A DNA stretch of 64,000 nt from an uncultured Azospirillum sp. (GTDB lineage: Bacteria > Pseudomonadota > Alphaproteobacteria > Azospirillales > Azospirillaceae), in assembly GCA_965650625.1 (NCBI GenBank), contig CBFGPE010000004.1, forward strand, positions 23,115 through 87,114, given 5' to 3'. Shown here in pieces: positions 1,591-22,062 of the stretch. Made by a program: the position numbers and the translations under genes. Below the pieces are notes generated by a model. It did not search any database. It was given only the letters and a program-made list of their open reading frames with translations, and was not told the DNA's origin. Numbering within the stretch: position 1 is the first letter of the stretch; each line of letters begins with the position of its first letter.

Positions 1591-2222
1591 GCCAGGGCGC
1601 GGTAAATCCCGATCAGAGTCGCCGCATCCTCGATCTCGGAGTTGGCAGCCATCCGCTCCACCGTTTCCAGGTCGAACAGAGTGGTGGCGCCGAGACCTAT
1701 TTCAATTTCATCCGCCCCATCCTTGCCGGGAGCAACTCCGGGGATGGTGCCGGCGGCATCCAGCTGGCCGGCCGGCCGGCAGCGGCGGGCCAGGAACAGC
1801 AGTCCTCGTGCCGCCATGGTCGCTCCCTCCGGCGTGAAGGAGCCGAGCGGGACCAGATCCTCCGGTCCGCAAGCCAGCCCGGTCTCCTCGGTCAGTTCGC
1901 GCCGGGCGGCATCGGCCGGATTCTCCCCCTCGTCGATGAAGCCCTTCACCATCTCCCAACTGCGCTGTCCGAGCGGATGGCGGTGGTTGTGCAGCAGGGC
2001 GAAACGGCCGTCCGCTTCACCCAGCACAGCAACGCCTGTGACCATGTCGGGGCCGGCATGCACGGGTTCTACGACCAGATAGCCGTCGACGGTGGTGCCG
2101 TCGCCGCGCAGGTCGTCGGCATAAGCCCGCCATTTGCTGTTCGCGTAGACGAGACGGCGGGAGGTGAGGATGGGCGGCATGGGTGGAAATCCGGAATGGA
2201 GGTCAATCCGCTCCGACCTCAT
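1542..2222 (-). CDS. NUDIX hydrolase (ADP-ribose/NDP-sugar pyrophosphatase-like)
   Basis: Nudix box GFIDEGENPADAARRELTEETGL. Alternative start at 2180. Confidence 0.85.
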   Translation of the reverse strand: MRSERIDLHSGFPPMPPILTSRRLVYANSKWRAYADDLRGDGTTVDGYLVVEPVHAGPDMVTGVAVLGEADGRFALLHNHRHPLGQRSWEMVKGFIDEGENPADAARRELTEETGLACGPEDLVPLGSFTPEGATMAARGLLFLARRCRPAGQLDAAGTIPGVAPGKDGADEIEIGLGATTLFDLETVERMAANSEIEDAATLIGIYRALAWLKRVCRETTPNTSS

Positions 2223-3210: not shown

Positions 3211-3353
3211 AGGCGGATATCCTTATATTGGTCCGGACTGCCGGCTCCAAGAATGTCCGGCCTGCTCGATGAATATCTGCTCGCCCCTTTTCGGGCGCTT
3301 CAGCGTCCATCGGATGCTTATTGAAGCAACCGGTGGACGCTGGCCTTTTGATT

Positions 3354-3402
3354 TTGAGCGATTCACGCTTCAGACGATTCCGTCTGAAACGATCGCGCTC
3401 TA
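3354..3402. repeat. Imperfect palindromic element supplying the TAG stop of the radical SAM gene
   Basis: ttgagcgattcacgcttcagacg-attc-cgtctgaaacgatcgcgctcta has a perfect 8-bp inner stem (ttcagacg/cgtctgaa) and outer gagcg/cgctc arms. Confidence 0.55.
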
Positions 3403-4920
3403 ATCGGCCAGGACTTCCATGCCGCTCTCCAGCAGAGCACGGGACAGGGAGTGCTTGGTCATCTGTTCGATATGCTCGCGGGTTTCCCAGCCGAAGCGCT
3501 GGGCCACCATGTCGAGATAGCGCTTGTTGGTGAAATATTCGGTAAAGGCCTGATCGCGGAAGCCCAGCACCTCCGCGGCGGAAATCTTTTCCGTCGGCAG
3601 CGGGGTGCAGTCGTAGCTGTGCTGGGAATAACCGCTCCACTGTTCCGGCAGGGCCCATCCCCTTTCCACCGCCATGGCGTAGAGCGGCGATCCCGGATAG
3701 GCCATCGCGGAATAGAAGTTGCCGAACTCGCAGTTCAGCTCCTTGGCCAGTTCCAGCGTCGCCCGCATGCTGTCCAGGTCGTCGTCGGGCAGACCGAAGA
3801 TGTAATTGCCGATGACGTGAATGCCGGCGGTCTGGATCGACTGTACAACGACACGGATGTCGTCCTGGGTGAAGGACTTGGACGCGCCGTCGCGGACATG
3901 CTCGCTGCCGGATTCGATGCCCAGGGCAAGCCAGCGGAATCCCGCCTTGCGCAGCTTTTCCAGCATGTGCGGCTTGACCGTGTCGACCCGGGCGTAGGCC
4001 CAGATGTTCAGGTCATAGCCGCGTTCGATCAGCCGGTCGCAGATCGCCAGGACATGGCGTTCGTTCAGGACGAACATCTCGTCGATGAACTTGTAGGTCT
4101 TGACGCCATAGTCGTTGTACAACCGGTCGATCTCGGCGACGACAGCGTCGGGCGAGCGCATGCGGTACCGGTTCACCCCGAACGGCGCGTTGATGCAGCA
4201 GAAGCTGCATTTGTAGGGGCAGCCGAGCGAGGTGTAGATGGAGGCGTAGGGCTGCCGCGATCCAAGGTTGCCGAAGCACTGCCAGTTGTGCGCCCGGTAC
4301 TTCTCCATCGGCAGCAGATCCCACACGTTGCCGTGCAGGTCGCCGTCGAGATCCTTGATCAGGGCCGGGGCGAGGTTGTTGCGGATCGTGCCGCCATCCG
4401 CATCCCCTCCGGTCCCCGCCACGCGGTAGACCAGCCCCTCCACCGCTTCGAGCGGCGGAGCCGGTTCCTTCAGCGCGTCGAGAAGCTGGGCGACGGTCAC
4501 CGGCCCTTCGCTGTTGCAGGCGAAGTCCACCGCCTCCTCGCGCAGCGTGCGCTCCGGCAGGGCGGCGACATGGCCGCCGACGATGATGATCGGCTGTTCG
4601 GGCAGGCGCGCCTTGATGGCGCGGCAGGTCAGTCCGGCCCCGACCATCTGCTGGGTCGAGGCGGAGGGCTGATGGCCGAACACCACCATTGCCACCAGGC
4701 GTGGCGCCAGTTCGGCGATGCGCTCCGCCACCTGGTCGGCGGTCAGGTGATCGGCCTCGGCGTCGATGATGTGGATGGAGTGGCCGCGGTCGCGGACATA
4801 GCCGCCGATCAGCCGGCACCACAGCGGCGGTTCGATCGCGGTCAGGGTTGACCCGAGGGACTGATAGATCTTGGTCCGCTCACCAGGGTTGACGAGGACG
4901 AGATCGACGTTCGGACTCAT
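3400..4920 (-). CDS. Cobalamin-binding radical SAM protein (class B methyltransferase-like)
   Basis: N-terminal B12-binding-like domain (IIIVGGHVAALPE), CxxxCxxC motif GCPYKCSFC, FIDEMF, WAYARVD, LGIESGS, and YPGSPLY. Confidence 0.9.
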   Translation of the reverse strand: MSPNVDLVLVNPGERTKIYQSLGSTLTAIEPPLWCRLIGGYVRDRGHSIHIIDAEADHLTADQVAERIAELAPRLVAMVVFGHQPSASTQQMVGAGLTCRAIKARLPEQPIIIVGGHVAALPERTLREEAVDFACNSEGPVTVAQLLDALKEPAPPLEAVEGLVYRVAGTGGDADGGTIRNNLAPALIKDLDGDLHGNVWDLLPMEKYRAHNWQCFGNLGSRQPYASIYTSLGCPYKCSFCCINAPFGVNRYRMRSPDAVVAEIDRLYNDYGVKTYKFIDEMFVLNERHVLAICDRLIERGYDLNIWAYARVDTVKPHMLEKLRKAGFRWLALGIESGSEHVRDGASKSFTQDDIRVVVQSIQTAGIHVIGNYIFGLPDDDLDSMRATLELAKELNCEFGNFYSAMAYPGSPLYAMAVERGWALPEQWSGYSQHSYDCTPLPTEKISAAEVLGFRDQAFTEYFTNKRYLDMVAQRFGWETREHIEQMTKHSLSRALLESGMEVLAD

Positions 4921-5293
4921 AGGATTGTTGCCAGACTCGGGTCATGAGGAGTGTGTCGGCCAGCATAGTCCGAAGGTAAAAGGCGGTCTAGGGAAAACAA
5001 GTTGTCTCGTGTAACAATTTAAGGTGGACATCGCCAGCAACCAAGCTGTTAACCATTGAAGAGCGGAGACGACATGTTAAAAACCTGAAATTATTTATTG
5101 TGCATAGAGGAGTATGAAAAACCCGATACCAAGAAACCTCCGGACGCCGCCGCGCGATCTCTTGAGACCTATTCAGGCCCCGGTGGACGAGGGGTGGCTG
5201 CCGTCGTCATGGCGCCTCCGATCCAGGATCACCGCCTTCGGTTCGGGCCGGCACGGCATGCCATGATATGCCATAAATTTCCGGCAAACGCGA

Positions 5294-6273
5294 TCAGGCG
5301 GATTGCCGCGCGTTCCACCAGGCGCATGTCCGCTCCAGGCCGTCGCGCAGCGATGTCCTGGCGCGCCACCCGAGCGCCAGACAGCGCGAGGCGTCCAGGC
5401 CTTTGCGTGGCATGCCGTCGGGCTTCTCCACGGCATAGTGGAAGCCGCCTTCGTAACCGACGACCGCGGCCACCATCTCCGTCAACTCGGCGATGCTGAC
5501 ATCCTCGCCCGAGCCGACATTGACGATCTCCTCGCCGCTGTAACGCTCCATCAGGAACACCAGGGCATCGGCGGCATCGTCGACATAGAGGAACTCGCGC
5601 CGCGGCCGGCCGGTCCCCCAGACCTCCACCGGCCCGATCCCGGCCGCCTTCGCAGCCTGGATCTTGCGGATCAGGGCCGGCACCACATGGCTGGCGGCCA
5701 GATCGAAATTGTCGCCGGGACCGTAGAGGTTGGTCGGGACGACGGCGATGAAATCGCGGCCGTACTGGCGGCGATAGGCCTGGCACAGCTTGATGCCGGC
5801 GACCTTTGCGGTGGCGTACCACTGGTTGGTCGGCTCGAAGGCGCCGGTCAGCAGGGAGTCCTCGACGATCGGCTGGTCGGCGAATTTGGGATAGATGCAG
5901 GACGACCCGAGGAACATCAGCTTCTCCACCCCGGCCAGATGGGCGCCGTGGATGATGTTGGCCTCGATCGCCAGATTGTCATAGATGAATTCGGCCGGCC
6001 GGGTGTCGTTGGCCAGGATGCCGCCGACGGTGGCGGCGGCGACGAACACGGCTTGCGGGCGCTCGCGCAGCATCCAGGCCTCGACGTCCCTTTGGCGGCG
6101 CAGGTCGACCGCGCCGCGGCCGACGGCAAGCGGCTGAGCGGCTGAGCGGCTGCGGCCGTCAGCCGACGGACCAGGGCCGAGCCGACCATGCCCGTATGCC
6201 CCGCCACCCAGACCCGCTTTCCGGCAAGCGGATACACCACCGGAGCCGCCTGCGTTCCAGTCGTGCTGTCCAT
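5294..6273 (-). pseudogene. fcl: GDP-L-fucose synthase/ColC-like epimerase-reductase, frameshifted by one extra 8-bp repeat unit
   Basis: The N-terminus MDSTTG...KRVWVAGHTGMVGSALVRRL starts at ATG 6273 with an AGGAAGGA RBS. It is in a different frame from the rest (VDLRRQ...AAATVGGILAN...FLGSSCIYPK...WYATAKVAG). The span is 980 bp, and removing 8 bp gives 324 codons. Confidence 0.85.
6129..6152. repeat. Perfect tandem repeat (AGCGGCTG)x3
   Basis: Read directly at 6129-6136, 6137-6144 and 6145-6152. It sits exactly at the fcl frameshift. Confidence 0.95.
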
Positions 6274-6707
6274 GGCGCGTCCTTCCTGTCCGTCGGCATG
6301 CCGTTCGGCCGGGGGCGAATGCCGTTGGCCAGTAAAAGGAAAATAACCACCCATTGTGCGCACCGCAATCCAAATGCCGCCATCCTGGCAACCGGGCCAG
6401 GAGTGAATATCCAAGTATGAGGCGGCGTCTTCCGCCGCATCGGCATGCCGCCGATCCAGGAAGACGGAAGGGCCGTTCCCTGTATTCCCTTGGTTTCCAC
6501 CGCCTCGACGGGCATTGGCAGGAAGATTCCACAAGCAAGTTGAGGATAATAAATAAAGAGAGAATCAACGCTCACTTTGCCGATCCGTTATTGATAAAAA
6601 TTGATGTTTCCATTCGGCCTGTGGCGTAATATCAAAAGTGTATATCGGCCGCGCGCCCTTTATAGGAAAATATTCTGCCTTCAACCCTCGCGCATTCCAG
6701 GGCTTCC

Positions 6708-8759
6708 ATGATCAAGACAGAGTTCAAGAGCAATGTTAAGAAGGCTCCAAAGGTCAGCTTTGTTCTTCTTGATTGGAAGTGCAGGGAAAGCTTCCACTCC
6801 CTCGATTACTTGGCGGAGCAGGATGTTCCGCGACATGATTACGAAATCATCTGGATTGAATATTATGCTCACACGTCAAAAGAAATAAGTGAAAAGATAT
6901 CTGACTATAGCGATAATAATCGTCCGGCGCCCATTGACCTTTGGCTTATTATGAATATGCCGGATGACCTATACTATCATAAGCACCTAATGTATAATAT
7001 TGGGATTGCGAAGAGTCGGGGTGATATTGTCATCATCTGCGACTCTGATGCGATGTTCACAAAATCCTTTGTTCGGACGGTGATCGAAACCTTCGAACGC
7101 ACGCCTGAAATTGCCCTGCACTTTGACGAGGTGCGCAATTCCAAACAGGATTTTTATCCCTTCAACTATCCGCCGTTCGAGTTGCTGACCGGGGATGGGG
7201 CGATCAATTGGCGCGACGGCAAGACCACCGGGCTGTGGGACACCGAGGACCCGCTGCATAGCCGCAATTACGGGGCATGCCTGTGTGCCAGGCGTTCCGA
7301 CCTGATCGCCATCGGCGGCGCCGATGAACACATGGATTACCTTGGCCATGTCTGCGGCCCGTACGAGCTGACCTTCCGCCTCGTCAACAAAGGCCTGAAG
7401 GAGGTCTGGCACGAAAGCGAGTTCCTGTACCACACCTGGCATCCGGGATCCGACGGCGACTTCAACTACATCGGCCCCACCGATGGCCGGCACATGTCCT
7501 CCACCGCGCTCGAGGCGCTGGAGAACGGTCGCATCATGCCGCTCACCGAGAACCCGGTCATCCGCCACGAGCGCGAAAACGGGGTGCCGCCGGCGAACGG
7601 CCAGTTCATCAATCCCGCCTGCCTGAAGGCCTGGACGCAGGAAGAGGTGGCGAAGTCGCCCCGCTTCAAGCTCTTCAAGCGCGGCCAGGGCGGCACCAAG
7701 CTGGTGCGGGAACTGGCCACCTACAACATCCTGTCCTACGACGGCAAATTCTACGGCGTCCCGCATTCCCTGGGGCCGGTTGATCTGGCCAGGAAGGAGG
7801 ACCGGGAAAAGCCGCAGATCGTCGAGGGGGCCTCGGCCGACGAGATCGAGGCGCTTCTCGCCGGGGGCCCGCCCCCCGCGCCCGTCGCGGCGCTTCCCGT
7901 GCAGCAGCCCTCCCAGCCCTCCAGACCGCGGGGCGTCCGGGCTCCTCCGGTTCTGGTCGGTATGGCCGGGCCTTTCAACGTGGTCTCCTATGACGACGCC
8001 TATTTCGGCGTTCCGACCTCGCTGGGACCGGTCGACCTGGCGGATCCGGCCCAGCGCGCCTTGCCGGAAATCCTGAAGGCCTCGACATGGAGCGACGTGG
8101 ACTCGATGATCCGGGCGCAACGCCTGATCCGGCTGGAGGTGGAGAGCCGTGCCCGGGAACAGATGCTGGAGCAGTTGCGGGCGGAACTTGCCGCCAAGGA
8201 CGCGATGATCGCGGACTTCCTGGACACGATCACCACCATGCGCGGTGAAAGCCAAAGCTGGGGTGAGGAGCGCGAGCGCCTGCGTCGCGAGCTGTTCAGC
8301 CTGCAGTTCCGCTTGAACGGTGCCGAGCTGCTCGACACGTTCACGCCGACCGACATCGCGGAGCGCCGTGCCGACGGCATCCGCGTCACCGCCGACAAGC
8401 CGGCCGGCTGTTTCCTGCACGGCTCGCGCCTGTCGCTGGGCAAGGGCAAGTACACGCTCGACATCTGGGGCGCAAGGCAGCACGCGTCCGCAGCGGGGCT
8501 GCCGGTTTTGAGCGTGGATCTGATCAGCAACGGCACGACCACCATCGGGACGTTCAACACCGAGCACTTCGCCGAAACGGCCACGCTGGTTTCGCTGGTG
8601 TTCCAGCTGAACGATGCGCCCACCAACGCCGGGCACGAGTTCGAAATCCGCCTCACCCACTATGGCCGCGTGGATCTGGTTGTCTCGAGGGTGCGGCTGC
8701 GCTTGACCTCCGATACGGGCGCAGCTTCCCCGGTGGGTCTTCACAGACAGCATGCATGA
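6708..8759 (+). CDS. GT2-like glycosyltransferase with internal repeats, coiled coil and C-terminal beta-rich domain
   Basis: GT-A-like N-terminus (KVSFVLLDW...SRGDIVIICDSDAMF...IGGADEHMDY...LYHTWHPG) and two copies of [YF]NxxSYDxxxxGVPxSLGPVDLA. Confidence 0.75.
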   Translation: MIKTEFKSNVKKAPKVSFVLLDWKCRESFHSLDYLAEQDVPRHDYEIIWIEYYAHTSKEISEKISDYSDNNRPAPIDLWLIMNMPDDLYYHKHLMYNIGIAKSRGDIVIICDSDAMFTKSFVRTVIETFERTPEIALHFDEVRNSKQDFYPFNYPPFELLTGDGAINWRDGKTTGLWDTEDPLHSRNYGACLCARRSDLIAIGGADEHMDYLGHVCGPYELTFRLVNKGLKEVWHESEFLYHTWHPGSDGDFNYIGPTDGRHMSSTALEALENGRIMPLTENPVIRHERENGVPPANGQFINPACLKAWTQEEVAKSPRFKLFKRGQGGTKLVRELATYNILSYDGKFYGVPHSLGPVDLARKEDREKPQIVEGASADEIEALLAGGPPPAPVAALPVQQPSQPSRPRGVRAPPVLVGMAGPFNVVSYDDAYFGVPTSLGPVDLADPAQRALPEILKASTWSDVDSMIRAQRLIRLEVESRAREQMLEQLRAELAAKDAMIADFLDTITTMRGESQSWGEERERLRRELFSLQFRLNGAELLDTFTPTDIAERRADGIRVTADKPAGCFLHGSRLSLGKGKYTLDIWGARQHASAAGLPVLSVDLISNGTTTIGTFNTEHFAETATLVSLVFQLNDAPTNAGHEFEIRLTHYGRVDLVVSRVRLRLTSDTGAASPVGLHRQHA

Positions 8760-8822
8760 CGGGGCGGCTCTGCCGGAGGCCGGCCAGAAACAGATCATTC
8801 GCTTTCCAGCGGAGGGGACGGA

Positions 8823-9167
8823 GTGTCCAACAGGATGTTTGAGCAGCGTCTTGCCACGGCCGAGAAGCGGATGGCCGAACGAGACCCGCGGAACCAGGAG
8901 CTGTCGGCCTTGGTCGAAGAGGTGGGCGAGCAGAATCGGCTGCTCCGGCACGCCTTGAACGAACAGGACAAGCGCATCCGGTCCCTGGAAGCCGCCTTGG
9001 CCGAACAGGCTCGCGTGCTTCAGGCCATCCGGGGGGAACTCGCGGACTCCGGCAGGCCAGTGGATGGCGGCCCGGCTCTTCTCAGCCTGTCGGCCCGCGT
9101 TCAGCTGATCGACGATGCGCTGACCGACCTTCGCCTTGCTGTTTTGGAAAGGTCCGGCACCCGGTAG
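8823..9167 (+). CDS. Hypothetical coiled-coil protein
   Basis: GTG start after GGAGGGG, heptad-like helical sequence, and it fills the gap between co-oriented genes. Confidence 0.6.
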   Translation: MSNRMFEQRLATAEKRMAERDPRNQELSALVEEVGEQNRLLRHALNEQDKRIRSLEAALAEQARVLQAIRGELADSGRPVDGGPALLSLSARVQLIDDALTDLRLAVLERSGTR

Positions 9168-9202
9168 AGTGCCGCCGCCCGGCCATTCGGGCCGGGGGGC
9201 TG

Positions 9203-11734
9203 ATGAAAGAGAGCAGCATGTTTATCCATTTCGACCTGCCCCGTGCCGCCGGGGATTCGCTGATGGACTGTGTCGAGCGCGTCTATGGTGCGTCGCGGGT
9301 GCTGCATCTTGGACACGGGCTTCGTTTCGATATGTCGTACGAGTCCCTGCTCAGCAAAACACCTGACGAACTTGATCTGATAAAGAACCACTACGGATGT
9401 GCGGTGACGAAGCATGCCTTCTCTCTGCACAAGATACTCGGGGCTCCGTACGTTGGTTTCATTCGAAATCCCTTTGACTGGTATGTTTCTTCATATTATT
9501 GGGCACGAAAGAACAGTCTGGGGAACCCGTCTGAATTTTACGGGTATATGATCGATAAACATGATATGTCATTGGAGTATTTTGTTCATTGGCTTCACGA
9601 CATAGGTCACGACAATAATCAGGCCAAGAATATTTTATACCTTTCAAAAGATCACGACAGCGTCCTGCCTCCGGATCCGGCGGACATCACCCTCGATGAA
9701 GCGAGTTTCGCCCAGACCATCGAACTGACTGAGACCGCGTTCGCGGTTCTTGCGCCGACCGATCTGTTCGGTCCGGCGCTCTATGTCATGGGCATGCTGT
9801 TCGACTGGCCGGACCTGCCGCTGTGGCGGCTGCGCTCTTCGTCCAACTGGCGCGCCTCGGCGTCGATCCCCGACACGCTCGAGGACTTCGTGCGCGAGCG
9901 CAGCCCCCATGACTGGAACCTGTTCGCCGCCGTCCGCAAAGGGTTCGAACAGCGTTATGCCGATGTTCTGACCGCCCGCGCCGCCGAGATCGCGGACTAC
10001 GACGCCTGCTCGCGGAACCCCGCCTGGCAGGACGCGATGCCGTTTCATGTCCGCGACGTTCAGGATCATCTCCAGCAGGGCATCCGCCTTCAGGCACCGC
10101 CGCCCCGCGACCCGGCCGCCGTCCCCGGCGCCCTGCGGGGGAACTGCATGTCGGGGCTCAAGCTGCATCTTCACGGCGTGGTCCATGGGCATTTCCTGCT
10201 GTCGCCCCGCCGGGACAGCCCGCCCTTCCTGGCCGTGCCGATGGTCAGCCTGATCCACCAGACCGCCGATCCGGACCGGCTCTGGCCATTCTACGGCCCG
10301 GGCGTTCTGTTCGACCGGTCGCTGGAAGGGCTCCGGCAACGGATCGAGGCGGGAGAGGTCCCGAGCCTGGTGGAAAGTCAGGGGGATCTCCAGATCTGGT
10401 TCTACCGAGGCGCGTACCGGTTCCTGGAGTGGGCGGCCGGCGCCGACATCGACGCGGTGTATGGCGATCCCGAGCGGACGCTGGGCGGTTCCCTCCAGGC
10501 CACGGACTGGCCGACGGCCCGTCTGTTCTTCACGCTGTTCACCGATCCGTTCCAGCGGCAGCGGATCGACGGGTTCGGCATCGTCGAAGGGGTGGAGGCT
10601 GAGCCCTGGAGGGCCGAACCGACGGCCGGCGGACCGGCGGTCACCGCCCCGTCCCTGCTGCGGTTGCTCGAAGCGCTGCAGGGCAGCGGGCGCCTTTCCC
10701 TGCGGTCGCCACCGCCGTTCCTGATCGACAGCCTGACCGACTACAATCTGGTCAAGTACCAGGGCCGGAATTACGGCGCGCGCCAGGGGGCCGGGGATCT
10801 GGAAGCCCTGCTGGCGGAGCCGGGGGAAAACCTCGTCGAGGCTGCGGCGCTGACGGATGTGCGGCGGGCGATCATCGACCGCTGGCTCTCTCACCGGTCG
10901 CCGGATCCCCACCTGATCGAAACCCTGGGCGTGACCAACATCGTCCTGTTCCGGGACCGTTTCGTCGCGTTGCCGCAAGCCCTCGGGGCCGTCGATTTGT
11001 CCGATCCCGCGACGTTCCACCTGCCCGGCGTGATCGTCAGCCGCAGCCGGACTCGCCTGCGGCATCTGGTCGCAACGGAAGCCGCCGGCCAGGACGTGAA
11101 CACGCAGGCGGGCACCGCACCGACCTCGGACGACCGTCCGGCGCCCCTGCTGCCGGACGCGTCCGGAAAGGGGCGGCTGTTCTGGCTGACCGGTTTGTCC
11201 GGGGCTGGCAAGACCACGGTCGCCCTGCGTGTGTGCGCGCGGCTGCGGGCAGCCGGGCTGCCGGCGGTGCTGCTCGACGGCGACCGCCTGCGGGCCGCCA
11301 TCGCTCCCGATGCCGGTCACGCCCCCGACCAGCGCCGCCAGCTGGCCTTTTCCTACGCCCGTCTGTGCCGGGAACTGGCGGAGCAGGGGCTGGTCGTCGT
11401 CATCGCCACCATTTCGATGTTCCATGCGGTCCGCCACTGGAATCGCGAAAATGTGGACGGCTATCGCGAAATATACTTGCGCGTTCCGCTTGAGCACCGC
11501 GCCGATCGTGACCCGAAGGGCTTGTACCGTAACGCCACTGTGGATATGGTCGGAATGGATACCTCCATTGAGGAGCCGGATCAGCCAGATCTCGTAATTG
11601 ACAATTACGGCACGACGACTCCGGACGGCGCGGCCGACCTGATCTGGAACCGATTGATTGCGTCCGATGCGGCTCTGATCGGCTTATCGGCTGCAGCCCC
11701 CGAAGACGGGGCTTTGAAGAAACCCACACATTAA
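9203..11734 (+). CDS. Fusion: sulfotransferase-like N-terminal domain, repeat region, and C-terminal CysC/Cj1415-like kinase
   Basis: N-terminus FIHFDLPRAAGDS...FIRNPFDWYVSSYY resembles Sulfotransfer_2 motifs. C-terminus has WLTGLSGAGKTT, LLDGD, TISMF, RDPKGLY and EEPDQPDLVIDN. Confidence 0.8.
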   Translation: MKESSMFIHFDLPRAAGDSLMDCVERVYGASRVLHLGHGLRFDMSYESLLSKTPDELDLIKNHYGCAVTKHAFSLHKILGAPYVGFIRNPFDWYVSSYYWARKNSLGNPSEFYGYMIDKHDMSLEYFVHWLHDIGHDNNQAKNILYLSKDHDSVLPPDPADITLDEASFAQTIELTETAFAVLAPTDLFGPALYVMGMLFDWPDLPLWRLRSSSNWRASASIPDTLEDFVRERSPHDWNLFAAVRKGFEQRYADVLTARAAEIADYDACSRNPAWQDAMPFHVRDVQDHLQQGIRLQAPPPRDPAAVPGALRGNCMSGLKLHLHGVVHGHFLLSPRRDSPPFLAVPMVSLIHQTADPDRLWPFYGPGVLFDRSLEGLRQRIEAGEVPSLVESQGDLQIWFYRGAYRFLEWAAGADIDAVYGDPERTLGGSLQATDWPTARLFFTLFTDPFQRQRIDGFGIVEGVEAEPWRAEPTAGGPAVTAPSLLRLLEALQGSGRLSLRSPPPFLIDSLTDYNLVKYQGRNYGARQGAGDLEALLAEPGENLVEAAALTDVRRAIIDRWLSHRSPDPHLIETLGVTNIVLFRDRFVALPQALGAVDLSDPATFHLPGVIVSRSRTRLRHLVATEAAGQDVNTQAGTAPTSDDRPAPLLPDASGKGRLFWLTGLSGAGKTTVALRVCARLRAAGLPAVLLDGDRLRAAIAPDAGHAPDQRRQLAFSYARLCRELAEQGLVVVIATISMFHAVRHWNRENVDGYREIYLRVPLEHRADRDPKGLYRNATVDMVGMDTSIEEPDQPDLVIDNYGTTTPDGAADLIWNRLIASDAALIGLSAAAPEDGALKKPTH

Positions 11735-11749
11735 ACCGAAATAGGGACT

Positions 11750-12526
11750 TTGGATCATATGCGCGGTCATGGCGATTTCACCGGGTTGGCAGAAAAATAT
11801 TCGAAATACCGCCCGACCTATTCGGCGACGGTCCGGGACGCGCTGATCGGCATGCTGCCGAAGCCGGCCGGGGAAGTCGAGGCAGCCGACGTCGGCGCCG
11901 GCACCGGCATCTGGACCCGTCTCGTGGCCGAACGGGTCCGCCATGTCACGGCGGTCGAGCCCAATGACGACATGCGCCGGCTCGGCATCGCCGATTCCGC
12001 CGGTCACCGGATCGAATACCGTGTCGGCTCCGGTGAGCAGACCGGCCTTGCCGACGCCTCGGTGGACATGGTCAGCATGGCGTCGTCCTTCCACTGGGTC
12101 GATTTCGAGCGCGGCCTGGCCGAGTTCCACCGCATCCTGCGTCCGGAAGGCCGCTTCGTCGCGCTGTGGAACCCGCGCCTGATCGATGCCAATCCCCTGC
12201 TGGTGGAGATCGAGGCGGAGATCACCCGGCTGGCCCCGGAAGTCGAGCGGGTGTCGTCCGGCAATTCCGGCATCACCGGGACCCTGACCGAGCGGCTGTG
12301 GGCCAGCCGGCAGTTCGACGACGTGGTCTATCTGGAAGGCCGTCACACCGTCGACCAGACCCCCGAACAGTATCTGGGCGTCTGGAATTCGGTGAACGAC
12401 GTGCGCCACCAGCTCGGCCCCGATCGCTGGGCCGCCTTCATGGCCTTCGTCGAGGCGCGGATCGCCGGCCTCGACGTGATCACCACCACCTATCGCACCC
12501 GTGCCTGGTCTGCACGCCGTCGGTGA
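11750..12526 (+). CDS. Class I SAM methyltransferase (Cj1419-like MeOPN methyltransferase candidate)
   Basis: YSKYRPTY, ADVGAGTG, AVEPNDDMR, ASSFHW, and C-terminal TRAWSARR. Confidence 0.85.
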   Translation: MDHMRGHGDFTGLAEKYSKYRPTYSATVRDALIGMLPKPAGEVEAADVGAGTGIWTRLVAERVRHVTAVEPNDDMRRLGIADSAGHRIEYRVGSGEQTGLADASVDMVSMASSFHWVDFERGLAEFHRILRPEGRFVALWNPRLIDANPLLVEIEAEITRLAPEVERVSSGNSGITGTLTERLWASRQFDDVVYLEGRHTVDQTPEQYLGVWNSVNDVRHQLGPDRWAAFMAFVEARIAGLDVITTTYRTRAWSARRR

Positions 12527-12534: not shown

Positions 12535-14889
12535 ATGGACACCTCCGCCTTAACGCGCCGGATCGCCTTCGGCAGCAAAGCCGAAACCCTGGAGCGCCTC
12601 GCACCGCATTTGAGGACGGCGCACGTCCTCGATCTGGTTCGCTTCCGGGCCGTCGATTGGAACGCGGGCGGCATGGAGGCGATCCTCGACCGCATCGCCT
12701 CCACACCGTGGGGCAGGCGGGGGCCTCTGATCGTCCGGTCTTCCGCCGCGGCGGAGGACCGGGAAGGGCAGTCCCTGGCCGGGCATTTCGTATCGATCGG
12801 CAACGTCGATCCGGCCGGGCTGCCGGCCGCCATCGCCGAGGTGGCGGCCTCCTTCGGGGATGAGCCGGTAGCGGCGGACCAGATCTTCGTCCAGCCCATG
12901 CTGACGGCCGCCATGAGCGGCGTCGCCTTCACCCGGGATCCCAACACCGGCGCTCCCTACCTGATCATCAATTACGAGGAGGGCGGCGACACCGCGGCGG
13001 TCACCGGCGGCCACGCCGCCGAATTGAAGACCTTCGTCTATTGGAAGGGCGCCACGGTGCCGTGCCCGTCCCCCCTCGACCAGGTCGTGGCGCTCGCCGG
13101 CGAACTGGAAGCGCTGCTCGGGGAGGAAAGCCTCGACATCGAGTTCGCGGTCTCGCCGACCGGCGAGCTGTACCTGTTCCAGGTGCGGCCGCTGTCCGCC
13201 GCCGCCGGAACGGCCGTCGGCGCCGACGAGCACCGGCCGCTGCTGGAAGCCATCGCCCAGAAGATCGCCCAGGCCAATCGGCCGCACCCCTACCTGCGCG
13301 GCCGCCGCACCCTGTACGGCGTCATGCCCGACTGGAACCCGGCCGAAATCATCGGCATCCGGCCACGGCCGCTGGCGCTGTCGCTGTACCGGCAGCTGGT
13401 CACCGACAGCGTCTGGGCCTACCAGCGCCACAATTACGGCTACCGGAACCTGCGCAGCTTTCCGCTGATGCGGTCCTTCCATGGGCTGCCGTACATCGAC
13501 GTCCGCCTCAGCTTCAATTCCTTCATTCCGGGCGACGTGCCGGACACGCTCGCCGACCGTCTGGTGGACTGCTACATCGACCAGCTCGCGGCGGCACCGG
13601 TGCTCCACGACAAGGTCGAGTTCGAGATCGTCTTCTCCTGCTACACCTTCGACCTCGACACCCGCCTGCAACGTCTGCGCGGCTTCGGCTTCTCGGAGCG
13701 CGATCTCGAAGAGCTGACCCAGAGCCTGCGTCGGCTGACCAACCGGATCATCCACCGCGAAACCGGCTTGTGGCGCAACGACAGCAAGAAGATCGGGATC
13801 CTGGAGGAGCGGCAGCGGACCATCCGCAGCACCGACATGGACATCGTCAGCCGCATCTATTGGCTGATGGAGGATTGCAAGCGCTACGGCACCCTGCCTT
13901 TCGCCGGCTTGGCCCGCGCCGGCTTCATCGCCGTCCAGATGCTGAAGTCGCTGGTGGCGGTCGGCGCGATCGAGCCGCAGCAGTACGACGCCTTCATGAC
14001 CAGCCTGGAGACCGTCAGCGGCCGCATGACCCGCGATCTGCGTGCCCTGTCCCGCTCGGAATTCCTGGAGAAATACGGGCACCTGCGTCCCGGGACCTAC
14101 GATATCCTGTCGCCGCGCTACGACGAGGATCCGGAACGCTACCTCGGTTCCGAGCACGGCGCCGGTCCGCACGACGAGGGCGCGGTGCCGACTTTCGCCC
14201 TGTCGCTGCCCCAGATGCGCCGGATCGACGCCCTCCTGAACCAGCACTCCCTGGAAATGGACGTGGTCAGCCTGTTCGACTTCTTCCAGGCCGGCATCCA
14301 GGGCCGCGAGCATTCGAAATTCGTCTTCACCCGGTCGCTGAGCGAGGTGCTGTCGCTGCTGAACCGCCTGGGCGAACGCTATGGATTGTCGCCGGACGAC
14401 ATGTCCTATTTCGATGCCTCTCTCATCGACGATCTCTACGCATCCAGCTGCGACATCGAGGCGACGCTGCGCCACAGCATCAGCCAGGGCCGCGCCCGCT
14501 ATGCGGAAACCCAGCGCATCGTTCTGCCGCCGCTGATCAGCCAGCCCGAGGAGGTCTGGGCGTTCCACATTCCTCCCACCGAACCCAACTTCATCACCCA
14601 GCGGACGGTGGAGGGGCCTGTGCGGTCGCACAAGGCGCCGGCGTCGGAGCTGAAGGGGGCGGTGGTGGTGATCCCCAGCGCCGATCCGGGCTTCGACTGG
14701 ATCTTCTCCCACGGCATCGGCGGCTTCATCACCGCCTATGGCGGGGTCAATTCCCACATGGCCATCCGCGCCGGCGAACTGAACCTTCCCGCCGTGATCG
14801 GGGCCGGGGAGACGCTGTTCAGCCAGTGGAAGGACAGCCGCCGCCTGCGCATCGACTGCGCATCCCGCCGGGTGGATGTCCTGCAATGA
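12535..14889 (+). CDS. PEP-synthase-like L-glutamine kinase (Cj1418-like)
   Basis: FGSKAETL, IVRSSAAAED, VQPML, DIEFA, YGVMPDWNPAEIIG, KRYGTLPFAGLARAGF, YGHLRPGTYDI, DPGFDWIF, and phospho-His motif GGVNSHMAIR. Confidence 0.9.
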   Translation: MDTSALTRRIAFGSKAETLERLAPHLRTAHVLDLVRFRAVDWNAGGMEAILDRIASTPWGRRGPLIVRSSAAAEDREGQSLAGHFVSIGNVDPAGLPAAIAEVAASFGDEPVAADQIFVQPMLTAAMSGVAFTRDPNTGAPYLIINYEEGGDTAAVTGGHAAELKTFVYWKGATVPCPSPLDQVVALAGELEALLGEESLDIEFAVSPTGELYLFQVRPLSAAAGTAVGADEHRPLLEAIAQKIAQANRPHPYLRGRRTLYGVMPDWNPAEIIGIRPRPLALSLYRQLVTDSVWAYQRHNYGYRNLRSFPLMRSFHGLPYIDVRLSFNSFIPGDVPDTLADRLVDCYIDQLAAAPVLHDKVEFEIVFSCYTFDLDTRLQRLRGFGFSERDLEELTQSLRRLTNRIIHRETGLWRNDSKKIGILEERQRTIRSTDMDIVSRIYWLMEDCKRYGTLPFAGLARAGFIAVQMLKSLVAVGAIEPQQYDAFMTSLETVSGRMTRDLRALSRSEFLEKYGHLRPGTYDILSPRYDEDPERYLGSEHGAGPHDEGAVPTFALSLPQMRRIDALLNQHSLEMDVVSLFDFFQAGIQGREHSKFVFTRSLSEVLSLLNRLGERYGLSPDDMSYFDASLIDDLYASSCDIEATLRHSISQGRARYAETQRIVLPPLISQPEEVWAFHIPPTEPNFITQRTVEGPVRSHKAPASELKGAVVVIPSADPGFDWIFSHGIGGFITAYGGVNSHMAIRAGELNLPAVIGAGETLFSQWKDSRRLRIDCASRRVDVLQ

Positions 14890-15524
14890 CGACGGTTCGG
14901 CCCGTGGCCGCGCGCCTGATCGCCGTCAGCCAGCGGGTGGACGTGATCGCCGGCCGCAACGAGCGGCGCGACGCTCTGGATCAGCGGTGGACCGGCTTCC
15001 TGGACGCCTGCGGCCTGCTGCCCGTGGCGATGCCCAACACGGCGTCGCCCGCTCTCGCGGCGGCTTGGCTTGAGGCGGTGGCTCCCGCCGGCATCCTGCT
15101 GACCGGCGGCAACGATCTGACGGCCTATGGCGGCGACGCCCCGGAACGCGACGCCGTGGAAACCCTGCTGATCGAGCATGCGGTCGCCCGGCGCATCCCG
15201 CTGATGGCCGTCTGTCGGGGCCTGCAGATGCTGATGCACCATTTCGGCGCCGGGCTGGAACGGGTGACGGGCCACACCGGCACCGAGCATCCGGTCGTCC
15301 TGGGCGATGGCGGGACGGACACCGTGAATTCCTACCACAATTGGGCCTTCACGAGCGTTCCGCCCGGTTTCACCGCCTGGGCGACCGCGCCCGACGGCGT
15401 GGTCGAGGCGGTTCGCCACGACACGTTGCCGCTGCTCGGCATGCTCTGGCATCCCGAACGCAATGCCCCCTACCGCGCCGCGGAGATCGATCTGGTCCGT
15501 CGTCATTTCGGGGTTGATCGGTAG
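14886..15524 (+). CDS. Class I glutamine amidotransferase-like gamma-glutamyl hydrolase (Cj1417-like)
   Basis: ATGA overlap with the kinase gene; LLTGGNDL, nucleophile elbow VCRGLQ, NSYH, and WHPER. Confidence 0.85.
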   Translation: MTTVRPVAARLIAVSQRVDVIAGRNERRDALDQRWTGFLDACGLLPVAMPNTASPALAAAWLEAVAPAGILLTGGNDLTAYGGDAPERDAVETLLIEHAVARRIPLMAVCRGLQMLMHHFGAGLERVTGHTGTEHPVVLGDGGTDTVNSYHNWAFTSVPPGFTAWATAPDGVVEAVRHDTLPLLGMLWHPERNAPYRAAEIDLVRRHFGVDR

Positions 15525-15614: not shown

Positions 15615-16361
15615 GTGAAAGCGATCATCCTTGCCGCCGGGCGTGGCAGCCGCATGAAGGCCATGACCGAGGACCGGCCGAAGTGTCTGGTTGAAATCGC
15701 CGGGCGCAGCCTGCTGGACTGTCAGCGCACTGCCCTGACCGGTGCCGGCGCCGGCCCGCTGGCCGTGGTGCGCGGCTATCGCGGCGAGGCGTTCGAAGGA
15801 CGCGGGCTGACCCTGTTCGATAATCCCCGCTGGGCCGAAACCAACATGGTCATGTCGCTGGTCCAGGCAGCCCCGTGGCTGAGCGCCGAACCGTGCCTCG
15901 TCAGCTACGCCGACATCTTCTACCCGGCGGAGACGGTGCGCCGGCTGATGGCGGCCGAAGGCGACATCGTCATCAGCTACGATCCGGACTGGCTGGCCCT
16001 GTGGCAGGCCCGCTTCGCCGATCCGCTGGTCGATGCCGAGAGCTTCCTGCTCGACGCGACCGGCCGGGTCATCGACATCGGCCGCAAGGTCCAGAGCCTC
16101 GACGAGGTCCAGGGGCAGTACATGGGCCTGCTGAAATTCACTCCCGCCGGCTGGGCACAGGTCACCGGCTATCTCGACGGGCTGGAACCGGCGGCGCGCG
16201 ACAAGCTGGACATGACCGGCCTGCTGTCGCGGCTGATCGCCGCCGGCGTGGTCATCCGGGCGGTCCCCAGCGCTCCCGGCTGGGGCGAGGTCGATTCCGA
16301 AAGCGATCTCGACCATTATGCCGCGGAGGTGGCGGCCGGGCGCGTCGCGCTGCCGGTCTGA
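15615..16361 (+). CDS. Phosphocholine/phosphoglutamine cytidylyltransferase family (Cj1416-like)
   Basis: KAIILAAGRGSRM, PKCLV, TNMV, SYADI, W...RFADPLVDAES, QYMGLLKF, and WGEVDSESDL. GTG start. Confidence 0.85.
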   Translation: MKAIILAAGRGSRMKAMTEDRPKCLVEIAGRSLLDCQRTALTGAGAGPLAVVRGYRGEAFEGRGLTLFDNPRWAETNMVMSLVQAAPWLSAEPCLVSYADIFYPAETVRRLMAAEGDIVISYDPDWLALWQARFADPLVDAESFLLDATGRVIDIGRKVQSLDEVQGQYMGLLKFTPAGWAQVTGYLDGLEPAARDKLDMTGLLSRLIAAGVVIRAVPSAPGWGEVDSESDLDHYAAEVAAGRVALPV

Positions 16362-16432: not shown

Positions 16433-17497
16433 ATGAGTCGGCGTTTCATCGACCATGGAGACGGCACCCTCACCGATGCCGAGACCGGCCTGATGTGGCG
16501 AGCCGATGGCGGCACGCCCGATCTGCCGGGCGTGCCGGGCGGGCCGAAGCCGTGGTCGGGTCCCTTCGGCGCAACCCCCGCCGACCTGCCGACGCTGCGC
16601 ACCGGCTGCTATGGGCCGCTGCCCGACCTTGACCTCTCCGGCCGGCCGGTCGGCTACGCGGTGTTCGACTATATCGACGCGCTGAACGCCGCGGCCTTCG
16701 CCGGTTACACGGACTGGCGCCTGCCCAACGTCAACGAACTGGCCAGCCTGGTGAACGAGGCGGTGCCGCACAGCCATCTGTGGCTGATGGAGAACGGCTT
16801 CCGCAACATCGAAACCCACTGCAACTTCTGGAGCTCGACCACCTGCCACGGCCATCCCGAACAGGCGTGGCACGTCCACTTCACCAACAGCGGCAACGTC
16901 CACACCAGCTGCAAGGCGTGGTGCGCCCATCACGTGCTGCCGGTGCGCGGCCTGAACAGCGGCCCGCGCCGCTTCCTGCAGACCGGGCAGACCCTGTGCT
17001 ACAGCGCCGATCTGGTGCCGCAGCTCCTGCCGGACGGCAGCGGGCGCGGCCAGGATGGCGACCTGCGCCTGGGCACGCCCCGGCCGGCGGACCGCTTCGA
17101 GCTGCGCGACGGCGGGGCGGCCGGCCGGGTGGTGGTCGACCGCTTCCTGGGGCTGGCCTGGGCATCGCCGCTGAACCTGGGCATGCCCTGGGACGCCGCC
17201 ATGGAGATGGTGCCGCGATGCTATGCCGGCTATGGCGGGCTGGACGGCTGGCGCCTGCCGGAGCGGGAGGAACTGCGCTCGCTCACCAACTATGGCTGTT
17301 CCGATCTGCTGGGCCTGATGCATCAGGCCGGTTTCGAGGATGTGCGGAACGTCGATTACTGGACCGGAACGCCCTGTGCCAACGATCCCGACCGCCACGC
17401 ATGGTCATTCGGCCTGGGCTGGGGGCTTTACGGACGCGAGCGGGCCGGGTTCCGGGCGGGGGTATGGCCGGTCTGCCCTTTCCCGCAGCCGGTGTAG
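16433..17497 (+). CDS. Tandem DUF1566 (Lcl C-terminal) domain protein
   Basis: RFIDHGDGTLTDAETGLMW, GYTDWRLPNVNEL, FWSST, QTGQT, GQDGD, GWRLPEREEL, and YWTGT. Confidence 0.8.
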   Translation: MSRRFIDHGDGTLTDAETGLMWRADGGTPDLPGVPGGPKPWSGPFGATPADLPTLRTGCYGPLPDLDLSGRPVGYAVFDYIDALNAAAFAGYTDWRLPNVNELASLVNEAVPHSHLWLMENGFRNIETHCNFWSSTTCHGHPEQAWHVHFTNSGNVHTSCKAWCAHHVLPVRGLNSGPRRFLQTGQTLCYSADLVPQLLPDGSGRGQDGDLRLGTPRPADRFELRDGGAAGRVVVDRFLGLAWASPLNLGMPWDAAMEMVPRCYAGYGGLDGWRLPEREELRSLTNYGCSDLLGLMHQAGFEDVRNVDYWTGTPCANDPDRHAWSFGLGWGLYGRERAGFRAGVWPVCPFPQPV

Positions 17498-18663
17498 GAG
17501 AAGGCGCTGCCTGCACCGGCGCCGCCGCGCCGTCCCTGGCCATCCTGACCTCCCCGCCCTTTGCCTGCGGAGTGGCCTGGCTGGTCAACGTGCTGCTGGA
17601 ACTGGGCATCCGCACCACGCATTGGGGCACGGCCAAGGGCGGGGGCGGCGGCCCCTGGCGGGAGTGCGGCGACGGCTGGACGCTGGATGAACCGGCGCGG
17701 GCCCTGCTCAAATGGCATCTGCCCATCCTGCACCAGGACGAGCCGCTGCGCTTCCGCGACGGCCTGGAGGTGGTGTGGGAGCATCGTCTCGATCTGGCCC
17801 GCGAGCCGGGCGAGGCCGTCATCCTCTACCTGCGCGACCCGCGCGACGCCATCCATTCGCTGTACCGGCGCGACTACGCTCGGACCCTCGGTTATCATGC
17901 CTATCTCGACCGCCCGGACGTCTGGCCCGACCATTTTCCGAACCTGTTCTTTTTGCCGCCGCCCGAGACCTACCTGCTGTTCGTCCTGTTCTGGCTGACC
18001 GTCGGCGAGACGGTGCCGCTGCTGACCGTGACCTTCGAGGGCATGCGTGCCGATCCGGTCGGAACGGTGCGCCGCGTGCTCGCCCACCTGGGGCAGGCGC
18101 GGCCGGATGACGAGATCGTCCGCGCGCTGGAACGCTCCGGCTTCCATGCGGCACGCCAAGCCATGCTGCGCACCAGCGCCGAGCAGGGGACGGAGCGCCT
18201 GACCGCCGCCAAGGGTGAGGTCGGCGAATGGCGGACCACCCATGACGACGCGGCCCTCGCCCGCTTCGCCCGGCCGCTCGCCCGGTTCGAAGCGCTGCTG
18301 GCTGACCTGCCGGCCGCCGAGGCGGCCTGGCAGGCCAAGGCCATTCCACGCGATCCCTTCGGCTGGCTGGAGGCGGGTGCTCCGGCCGATCTGGCCGCGG
18401 TGCTGGCCGCTATGCCGGCGGTGGCAGACAAGCCGGCGGCGCACCTCTCTGCCCAAGCCGCGGTGGCGGCCGGCTGGTTCACCGCCCGGGCAGCCGGAGG
18501 ACCGGACTTCACGCTGTCGCTGCCGCGGCGTCTGTTCCTGCGCTTCTACGCCTTCCTTCTCGAAGGACTGGACTCCGCCCCCATCGACACCCTGCTCCGT
18601 TCCCGCCACATCGACCGCATCCACGAACTTTGCCGGGGGATGGTGGGAGCGATGCCGGAGTGA
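17464..18663 (+). CDS. Sulfotransferase-like protein
   Basis: LYLRDPRDAIHS, VTFEGMRADP, KGEVGEW, and a degenerate 5'-PSB loop (SPPFACGVAWL). Start uncertain. Confidence 0.65.
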   Translation: MAGLPFPAAGVGEGAACTGAAAPSLAILTSPPFACGVAWLVNVLLELGIRTTHWGTAKGGGGGPWRECGDGWTLDEPARALLKWHLPILHQDEPLRFRDGLEVVWEHRLDLAREPGEAVILYLRDPRDAIHSLYRRDYARTLGYHAYLDRPDVWPDHFPNLFFLPPPETYLLFVLFWLTVGETVPLLTVTFEGMRADPVGTVRRVLAHLGQARPDDEIVRALERSGFHAARQAMLRTSAEQGTERLTAAKGEVGEWRTTHDDAALARFARPLARFEALLADLPAAEAAWQAKAIPRDPFGWLEAGAPADLAAVLAAMPAVADKPAAHLSAQAAVAAGWFTARAAGGPDFTLSLPRRLFLRFYAFLLEGLDSAPIDTLLRSRHIDRIHELCRGMVGAMPE

Positions 18664-20237: not shown

Positions 20238-20253
20238 TCGCAGGATGAAACTT

Positions 20254-21144: not shown

Positions 21145-21879
21145 TCAGGCGCCGTCCACAGTGCGAGGCAAGCAGGGCTCGTAACCGAGCAGGGCAATTT
21201 CGGCGCCCAGCTCCTTGTCCCACGACTCCAGGGCTTCAGGCGAGAACAGGCGGCGCCATTCGCCTGAAACCCCTTTGCGGACGATATAACGATTTCTCAC
21301 CATCTCGCCGTCCGAACCGCGCGGGCGGTTGGACATGGCCTCGAAGGAGTATTTCGTGTCGTAAAGAGAGCGGATCCTCTGCTCTAGTTCCGGATTGCGG
21401 GTAAATCCATAGAACTCAAGCACATCAAGCGTTACTCCAACAGTGTCCTGCTTAAGCTCGTCGAACTTTATGACCTTTATCGGCCTTTCCCGGGCCAGGT
21501 CTACCCACTTGCATGCCTCTCGGATCGTGTTGGCGAAATTACCGTAAGCCAATCCGTGTAGTGTCTCCCGCAGCTTTGCTCGATCGACAATCCCGCGGAA
21601 AATGTGATCCTCGAGATACGAAATAGCTACATCACGAGGGTCTCTTTGCAAGAAAACAATTGATACTTCTTCACGCTCAAGAAATGGGATGAAGAAGTCG
21701 GAATTATTGTGTGTCCAATGAAAATAAGGGCTTGGCGGCGGATCGTCGACGAGTCGTCTGGTTGATTCTGGGCCGTAATTCAGAACATTTACTTGTATCG
21801 TTCTGAGGTAATCCTCCAAAATCGGCACTATTGCTGAGGATCCTGAGTAAAACAAATTACAGAAGATCAAATTCTTCAT
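21145..21879 (-). CDS. Sulfotransferase domain protein (AT-richer than flanks)
   Basis: FYSGSS loop, QRDPRDVAIS, KFDELKQD, and VRKGVSGEW. GAGGAAG RBS before ATG 21879. Confidence 0.8.
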   Translation of the reverse strand: MKNLIFCNLFYSGSSAIVPILEDYLRTIQVNVLNYGPESTRRLVDDPPPSPYFHWTHNNSDFFIPFLEREEVSIVFLQRDPRDVAISYLEDHIFRGIVDRAKLRETLHGLAYGNFANTIREACKWVDLARERPIKVIKFDELKQDTVGVTLDVLEFYGFTRNPELEQRIRSLYDTKYSFEAMSNRPRGSDGEMVRNRYIVRKGVSGEWRRLFSPEALESWDKELGAEIALLGYEPCLPRTVDGA

Positions 21880-22062
21880 TTCTTCCTCAGAATCGGAGCA
21901 AATGGCTATGCTGAAAGGTATAGCAATCCCGGTGTCACATACCAATGGGAATTTTCCTGCCTGGAAGACGATGGAGCGGCGGGCCTCAGCGTCACAATGG
22001 CATCCGCTGGACAAGGCAAGGGTAACCGTCCTCCGGCAGAAGGGACACCGGGTTTGCGTGGC

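Follow-up and report, generated by a model that had tools for sequence, protein, structure and literature searches.

The fusion gene at the head of the locus

We analysed a 64,000-nucleotide stretch of DNA from an uncultured Azospirillum sp. (assembly GCA_965650625.1, contig CBFGPE010000004.1, positions 23,115 to 87,114 of the forward strand), called the window below, and in it a gene that joins a sulfotransferase-type domain to a nucleotide kinase at the start of an operon for a phosphoramidate donor. An initial annotation of this gene had proposed that the sulfotransferase fold was repurposed to transfer phosphoramidate from a donor completed by the fused kinase. The encoded protein has three parts, a sulfotransferase-type region (residues 3-270), a repeat region (320-629) and a kinase (656-819), which are laid out with their linkers as follows.

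9203..11734, + strand: whole fusion open reading frame (ORF), 843 amino acids (aa); alternative start ATG at 9218, giving MFIHFD...
9209..10012, + strand: sulfotransferase-family-2-type domain, residues 3-270 (117-bit profile match; AF2/Foldseek)
10022..10159, + strand: poorly conserved linker, residues 274-319 (model confidence, pLDDT, below 50; variable alignment columns)
10160..11089, + strand: about five tandem ~60-aa beta-beta-beta-alpha repeats, residues 320-629 (predicted secondary structure; profile matches)
11090..11167, + strand: variable Ala/Pro/Asp-rich linker, residues 630-655, the former gene boundary (alignment, model)
11168..11659, + strand: Cj1415-type (NF004041/PRK05541) nucleotide 3'-kinase domain, residues 656-819 (Pfam, NCBIfam, tree)

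The frame is open over all 843 aa and has coding-type codon-position GC throughout, the third position being the highest of the three along its whole length. With a kinase matched by Pfam and NCBIfam and a sulfotransferase family revealed by the profile of its relatives, the two-domain protein described in the initial annotation is real. Because the fusion is shared by five orthologue clusters at 90% identity (836-849 aa) and by three further genomes of the genus, an assembly error is excluded; the closest named homologue, from A. lipoferum, is 90% identical. Only 4 of 121 genomes of the family carry the gene, all four in one genus and all with the fused form, and we therefore regard it as an accessory gene. 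There is no homopolymer of six or more bases within it, so that phase variation through a poly-G tract is not expected. Third-position GC in the gene is 0.61 over the first 200 codons compared with 0.85-0.88 in later codons, and the G+C content of the window is 0.54-0.63 at 2000-10000 and 20000-22000 and ∼0.69 elsewhere. These low-G+C parts and the start of the fusion gene suggest a horizontally acquired or mosaic island.

The kinase domain groups with kinases of glutamine-kinase operons

The C-terminal domain contains the kinase motifs GLSGAGKTT (P-loop), LDGDRLR, ATISMF and RDPKGLY and matches the Pfam model APS_kinase (adenosine 5'-phosphosulfate, APS) at 4.8e-29. It passed the model NF004041, of which Cj1415 of Campylobacter jejuni is presumably itself a member, with 136.4 bits (cut-off 127) and fell below the cut-off of TIGR00455, the canonical APS-kinase equivalog (109 versus 138.7 bits), which bears out the earlier call of a Cj1415-like kinase. 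The two canonical APS-kinase domains found elsewhere in the genome, both in CysN-CysC-like open frames, scored 257 and 238 bits with TIGR00455 and 110 bits with NF004041, while seven kinases of other glutamine-kinase operons showed the same pattern as the window (141-220 bits with NF004041, 90-129 bits with TIGR00455). A maximum-likelihood tree of 81 domains separated three canonical domains from 78 others (split support 100/100), and the window's kinase fell among the 78, a clade of kinases linked to glutamine kinases. The canonical motifs DGDN.R..LN..LGF, FISP and FTG read DGDRLR, TISM and MVG in the fusion kinase, and its nearest non-orthologous multi-domain relatives (51-61% identity) are glutamine kinase fusions in 115 of 115 cases. 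From the NCBIfam scores, the tree and the fusion partners, we conclude that the kinase belongs to the phosphoramidate pathway and not to sulfur assimilation. Its sequence would accordingly predict a preference for cytidine diphosphoramidate (CDP-amidate) over APS. Apparent kinase fusions at three other loci, L012 (471 aa), L061 (642 aa) and L040 (1220 aa), were discarded; their extensions are Arg/Pro/Ala-rich open frame of the kind typical of high-GC DNA and contain no domains.

These results bear on true sulfation, the alternative named in the initial annotation, in which the N-terminal domain would be a polysaccharide sulfotransferase dependent on 3'-phosphoadenosine 5'-phosphosulfate (PAPS) and the kinase would phosphorylate APS made by the sulfate adenylyltransferase of the cell, either alone or besides CDP-amidate. 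Such a role sits poorly with a kinase that lies in the glutamine-kinase-tied clade, scores below the APS-kinase equivalog cut-off and does not have the DGDN Asn or the FTG Phe, both of which are kept in the canonical domains of the same genome. Moreover, the genome already has those two canonical APS kinases, one of them beside a canonical sulfotransferase. Contig C40 (37534-41175) holds a Sulfotransfer_3 gene and, 2.6 kb away, the gene of a canonical CysN-CysC-type APS kinase, a pair that looks like a separate conventional sulfation module.

The N-terminal domain is a divergent sulfotransferase

The initial annotation had recognised a sulfotransferase-like N-terminus from motifs only, and Pfam is silent there: no Pfam sulfotransferase model matched the fusion protein even at E≤1, and a search of the whole genome with PF03567 found nothing. 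We used a profile of residues 6-633 and three stand-alone homologues to search 1.84 billion representatives. The N-region family itself proved rare (∼11 proteins below 1e-30), and positions 1-260 of the profile matched many single-domain proteins of about 270-300 aa; of the 35 closest of these, 35 match Pfam Gal-3-O_sulfotr/Sulfotransfer_2 (PF06990/PF03567). A profile made from these 35 relatives without the window sequence scored 117 bits on residues 3-270. Since Foldseek with the full-length AF2 model (pLDDT 63, pTM 0.33) returned APS kinases only, the N-domain was modelled separately. The model of residues 1-300 reached a pLDDT of 85.7 and a pTM of 0.86, and almost all of its top Foldseek matches in the PDB were sulfotransferases, led by the heparan sulfate 2-O-sulfotransferase 4NDZ (probability 1.0, TM 0.47) and including 5T03 (TM 0.51), with E-values that were weak (best 1.9e-3). 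Searching the sequences of the PDB with the N-region profile gave no match. Judged by family profile and predicted fold, residues 3-270 form a genuine sulfotransferase-family-2 domain, albeit a divergent one, and the earlier call was correct.

The donor loop, LPRAAGDS, occupies residues 12-19 (nt 9236-9259). The PKTAGST of the family corresponds to P13-R14-A-A-G-D-S, so that Arg14 replaces a Lys whose conservation among the 35 relatives is 90% or more, and the loop departs from the canonical PKxxGxT pattern; within the N-region family the Arg is invariant. The family motif RdPvdRviS reads R88-N-P-F-D-W-Y-V-S96, and R88, P90 and S96 of this 3'-phosphate Arg/Ser motif are invariant in all alignments. 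The family's DN.QTR appears as D137-N-N-Q-A-K, and T69-K70-H71 stands at the position of its GH motif. The loop sequence given in the initial annotation holds, but its description of the PAPS loop as degenerate was overstated, because the loop keeps a basic residue and the 3'-phosphate Arg/Ser site is intact. For the same reasons we dropped the loop change as a mark of lost sulfate chemistry; in tyrosylprotein sulfotransferases an Arg serves at this position of the 5'-phosphosulfate loop. All catalytic motifs of the N-domain are compatible with sulfuryl transfer and the nearest solved folds are carbohydrate sulfotransferases, both of which favour sulfation.

A repeat region lies between the two domains

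The 310-residue repeat region was absent from the initial annotation. Each repeat has three short strands and helices in the full-length model, and conservation is highest in the last two copies (496-626). Positions 500-626 match hundreds of multi-domain proteins with family-2 glycosyltransferase (GT2), radical SAM/SPASM, methyltransferase or sulfotransferase domains, and no Pfam family covers the ∼60-aa repeat. Its consensus is P.L......YNIV.Y....YA.P..LG..DL, and it occurs in tandem at the ends of proteins of these four kinds (P0013-P0049). The same repeat is found in the upstream neighbour of the fusion gene:

6708..8759, + strand: family-2 glycosyltransferase with the repeat at its C-terminus (repeat profile E = 1.2e-13)

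This distribution suggests that the repeat is probably a polymer- or partner-binding module. It could be asked whether the whole N-region is non-catalytic and serves as a donor- or polymer-binding module that places the kinase on the assembly machinery, given that the repeats are common to the adjacent glycosyltransferase and many unrelated glycan enzymes and that the N-region lies below the threshold of every Pfam sulfotransferase model. However, Arg14, His71, Arg88 and Ser96, with the motifs around them, do not vary among homologues that are 42% to 90% identical, and the region also exists as a stand-alone protein of 603-631 aa. We consider a purely binding role very improbable.

The fusion gene heads a predicted phosphoramidate donor operon

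In C. jejuni, Cj1418, Cj1416, Cj1417 and Cj1415 form the route to 3'-phospho-cytidine diphosphoramidate (PMC6429109). The fusion gene is the first gene of an operon with tight or overlapping downstream junctions that offers a candidate for each of these steps and for methylation.

11750..12526, + strand: S-adenosylmethionine (SAM) methyltransferase (Cj1419/Cj1420 position), present in 69 of 82 glutamine-kinase loci
12535..14889, + strand: L-glutamine kinase, Cj1418 type (NF004508, 935 bits, cut-off 501)
14886..15524, + strand: class-I amidotransferase/C26 hydrolase, whose start overlaps the glutamine kinase stop (ATGA)
15615..16361, + strand: nucleotidyltransferase (Cj1416 position), matched by generic models only, in 78 of 82 loci

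The best NCBIfam match of the C26 hydrolase is NF045546, gamma-glutamyl-CDP-amidate hydrolase (Cj1417), at 106 bits against a cut-off of 250, and the order of the hydrolase and nucleotidyltransferase families is conserved in 68-78 of 82 loci. Of the Cj1416-18 homologues to which the initial annotation had looked, the glutamine kinase is above its cut-off, and the other two positions are filled by genes that remain below theirs. A place at the head of a phosphoramidate-donor operon, shared by two independent relatives in the same operon, again argues against sulfation as the task of the fusion gene.

The Campylobacter transferases Cj1421 and Cj1422 have a conserved 244-residue N-terminus and a DUF2972 domain (PMC5808241). 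The corresponding models NF058596 and PF11186 (DUF2972) gave no match in the fusion protein at E≤1, nor any in the whole genome or in 46 other operon genomes, a search that had no positive-control genome. Hence no such transferase is present by these models, as the initial annotation had noted for the window, and since most of the operon genomes checked lack the Campylobacter enzyme, another enzyme class must act there.

Two further genes of the cluster, neither of which was in the initial annotation, have to be considered for this step:

17464..18663, + strand: Sulfotransfer_1-like protein with the donor-loop Lys missing (PPFACGVAW; LRDPRD..S kept), a rival or second transferase candidate
21145..22014, - strand: Sulfotransfer_1-like protein with the donor-loop Lys missing (LFYSGSSA; QRDPRD..S and RKGVSGEWR kept), a rival or second transferase candidate

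Both keep the 3'-phosphate motifs RDPRD..S and (R)KG..GEWR, whereas neither Lys nor Arg occurs in their donor loops. The family of 21145-22014 has orthologues beside the same operon at two other loci, L008 and L013 (Azospirillum sp. TSO22-1), the latter without an N-region, and Sulfotransfer_1 genes are likewise near the operon at L090. It is conceivable, then, that these proteins are the transferases and that the N-region has another task, such as sulfation, another group transfer, or polymer or donor binding. Yet only the N-region is fused to the kinase or lies immediately upstream of it, and its catalytic-site residues are invariant across homologues of 40-90% identity. Furthermore, C. jejuni uses at least two transferases for different acceptor positions (PMC5808241), and several per cluster are therefore not mutually exclusive. 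We rate this explanation as unlikely, and below true sulfation.

Altogether the genome has seven sulfotransferase-fold genes, four of them in the window. The polysaccharide cluster also contains an Lcl_C (DUF1566) protein (16433-17497) and a C1q-domain protein (19069-20025), and a histidine phosphatase gene lies between the C1q-domain gene and the second Sulfotransfer_1-like gene. Lcl_C is found together with the N-region at L008 and L090, and in P0015 (L092) it forms one protein with an N-domain homologue. Farther away, one of the four sulfotransferase-fold genes of the window, that of a canonical sulfotransferase (58834-59685, - strand; YPKSGNTW, RDPRD), has asparagine-synthase-like and P-loop kinase-like neighbours (55823-60596) in what looks like a lasso-peptide cluster unrelated to the donor operon. 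A 214-aa ORF (53459-54103, - strand) with GMQSSGATAF and LLLRDPRDNYIS motifs has a sub-threshold Sulfotransfer_3 match (E = 0.017) and adjoins two 2-oxoglutarate-Fe(II) (2OG-Fe(II)) oxygenase genes and a methyltransferase.

Unfused relatives and the wider pattern at glutamine-kinase loci

In relatives, the N-region is encoded by a separate gene. At L090 and L091 the N-region gene is followed in turn by those for the kinase (184 aa), the methyltransferase, the glutamine kinase, the C26 hydrolase and the nucleotidyltransferase, with a 106-bp gap between the N-region and kinase genes at L090, and L008 has the same order with one Sulfotransfer_1 gene between N-region and kinase. These adjacent unfused genes indicate that the fusion joined neighbouring genes of one operon.

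Glutamine kinases are encoded in at least 577 species representatives, and we surveyed the best 80 loci besides the window, all from relatives closer than Campylobacter. At the core of these loci a kinase, which is either free or part of the glutamine kinase protein, comes first, and methyltransferase, glutamine kinase, C26 hydrolase and nucleotidyltransferase follow in that order. A Sulfotransfer_3-like family occurs at 14 of these loci, family-2 sulfotransferases at two, and a lysine-less Sulfotransfer_1 family at one. To judge the first of these we used as background the 169 PF13469 matches in 240 Mb of the same genomes. The 0.98 Mb of operon flanks held 11 Sulfotransfer_3-like genes compared with 0.69 expected, a ∼16-fold enrichment (Poisson 2e-10), and all 11 lay within 4 kb of the glutamine kinase. 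A CysQ-like gene of the inositol-monophosphatase family was found inside 8 of the 80 operons, in keeping with clearance of a by-product of the nucleoside 3',5'-bisphosphate kind. At L016 this gene (12911-13726) lies between hydrolase and nucleotidyltransferase, and it does likewise at seven other loci.

An unannotated family of ∼300-400 aa also stands beside the operon, at L024 (15970-17172) and at 15 other loci, mostly of Acidobacteriota. Its motifs GLFGTGR and YRHPLDSLLT recall sulfotransferase donor loops, and neither Pfam nor hhalign gave the fold any support. Comparison by hhalign among the sulfotransferase-like families found near the operon (c16, c18, c55 and family 2) yielded only weak scores, and we make no claim for the fold of c16.

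A candidate phosphoramidate transferase

Taking together what the analysis shows, namely the homology of both domains, the subfamily of the kinase, the genes of the operon, the conservation of the fusion and the adjacent unfused genes of relatives, we favour the explanation that the N-domain is a phosphoramidate transferase using 3'-phospho-CDP-amidate from its own kinase domain, to which we assign a probability of roughly 0.55. The donor, the group transferred, the acceptor, the part played by the repeats and any channelling between the domains are inferred. In this scheme, the downstream genes would supply CDP-amidate: the glutamine kinase would phosphorylate the amide of glutamine, the nucleotidyltransferase would link the phosphorylated glutamine to cytidine monophosphate, and the C26 hydrolase would free glutamate. 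The C-terminal kinase would add the 3'-phosphate, giving 3'-phospho-CDP-amidate, a cytidine look-alike of PAPS, which the N-domain would bind as sulfotransferases bind PAPS. Arg88 and Ser96 would grip the 3'-phosphate, and the Pro13-Arg14 loop would lie on the 5'-diphospho group. With a general base near His71, the terminal phosphoramidate would pass to a hydroxyl of a surface polysaccharide and cytidine 3',5'-bisphosphate would be released. The neighbouring methyltransferase would O-methylate the phosphoramidate before or after transfer, and the five beta-rich repeats, common to the adjacent glycosyltransferase, would probably tether the enzyme to the polymer or assembly complex that it shares with that glycosyltransferase.

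Several observations weigh against this assignment. The clearest concerns P0009, an N-region homologue on the metagenome contig L007 that is 43% identical to the window's protein and has the same LPRAAGDS, TKH and RNP..S motifs. The gene order at L007 (10001-16252) is P0009, a Na/H exchanger, a kinase, sulfate adenylyltransferase and pyruvate kinase. The sulfate adenylyltransferase, which is of the canonical kind (NF003166, 427 bits, cut-off 387), is thus at a distance of two genes from P0009, no glutamine kinase lies within 10 kb of P0009, and this setting suggests a role in real sulfation. The L007 kinase, on a long tree branch, scores 158 bits with NF004041 and 135 bits with TIGR00455, near the cut-off of 138.7, and a kinase of this type in such company suggests that the NF004041 subfamily may phosphorylate APS too. 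The replacement of Lys by Arg in the donor loop carries no information on the donor, and the N-domain sequence holds no feature that separates cytidine from adenine or phosphoramidate from sulfate. At the locus itself, neither the Cj1417-like nor the Cj1416-like gene reaches its equivalog cut-off, and the two lysine-less Sulfotransfer_1 genes are equally eligible as the transferase. In the survey, the N-region family was present at 0 of the 80 other operon loci and a sulfotransferase-fold neighbour at only 17 (32 counting the unproven family), so that the pairing is not universal. Finally, we know of no biochemistry for any sulfotransferase-fold phosphoramidate transferase, and a literature search found no phosphoramidate-bearing glycan of Azospirillum.

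The L007 arrangement, with its ATP sulfurylase and NF004041-type kinase, is the strongest argument for sulfation by the fusion protein. Set against the kinase assignment and the operon, however, it leaves sulfation improbable to our minds, at something over one chance in five. Across the contexts of the N-domain family, three neighbourhoods have the phosphoramidate operon and one has ATP sulfurylase, and L007 may be a case in which nature has moved the kinase-transferase pair to a sulfate donor. We conclude that the repurposing of the sulfotransferase fold proposed in the initial annotation has gained from the kinase type, the downstream pathway, the missing Campylobacter transferase, the unfused gene order and the ∼16-fold enrichment, but has lost the argument from the loop and has to contend with L007 and the rival genes.

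A broader idea, which we advance tentatively and with less confidence than the assignment itself, is that the sulfotransferase fold lends itself by nature to phosphoramidyl transfer and that the fusion is a self-contained enzyme that both finishes and uses its donor. The L007 homologue would then show that a kinase-transferase pair works with whichever activated group its neighbours provide. As the two 3'-phosphorylated donors are nearly isosteric, exchanging the genes for upstream activation would be enough to change the pair from sulfate to phosphoramidate or back.

Comparison with known systems

Biosynthesis of the donor for O-methyl phosphoramidate (MeOPN) has been worked out, and the transfer step has been assigned to Cj1421 and Cj1422 by genetics only; in 2025 the group behind the elucidation of the pathway still treated the mechanism of decoration as future work (PMC12409886). 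Our literature search found no paper linking a glutamine kinase with a sulfotransferase and none with the idea that the fold is reused. New here are the covalent joining of the two domains, the descent of the N-domain from family 2 and the homologue in a sulfate context. A sulfotransferase-type domain joined to a kinase of the pathway is a Rosetta-stone link between making and using the donor, and offers a concrete target for assay. If the favoured assignment is true, transfer of a P-N group would be new chemistry for a well-studied fold, the 3'-phosphate on the donor would be explained, and a surface glycan of Azospirillum would bear an unreported phosphoramidate decoration.

The closest parallel is the MeOPN cluster of C. 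jejuni (Cj1415-Cj1422), which likewise brings together in one polysaccharide cluster a glutamine kinase, a C26 hydrolase (here with Cj1417 as best match) and a nucleotidyltransferase, together with a kinase of the PRK05541 type and a methyltransferase dependent on SAM. Like Cj1421 and Cj1422, the candidate transferase is encoded within the MeOPN-type donor cluster, but it is unrelated to them in sequence and is fused to the kinase. The Azospirillum cluster also differs in having one methyltransferase where C. jejuni has two, in the lack of a poly-G-type tract in the gene, and in its host, a soil- and plant-associated alphaproteobacterium.

With the Sulfotransfer_2 and Gal-3-O-sulfotransferases (4NDZ), the N-domain shares homology, fold, the 3'-phosphate Arg/Ser, the DN.Q motif and, as proposed here, a sugar-polymer acceptor. 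It differs in lying below the Pfam thresholds, in the replacement of the loop Lys by Arg and Thr by Ala, and in a Trp at the second Arg of RxPxxR. Unlike the carbohydrate sulfotransferases, it is fused to repeats and a phosphoramidate-pathway kinase, and its proposed donor is a cytidine nucleotide with a phosphoramidate. Bifunctional PAPS synthases and CysN-CysC/NodQ proteins resemble the fusion in that consecutive steps around a 3'-phosphorylated donor are joined and the kinase fold is the same; those proteins, however, combine activation with the kinase, whereas here the kinase is combined with the presumed user of the donor, and in other bacteria the same type of kinase is fused to the glutamine kinase instead.

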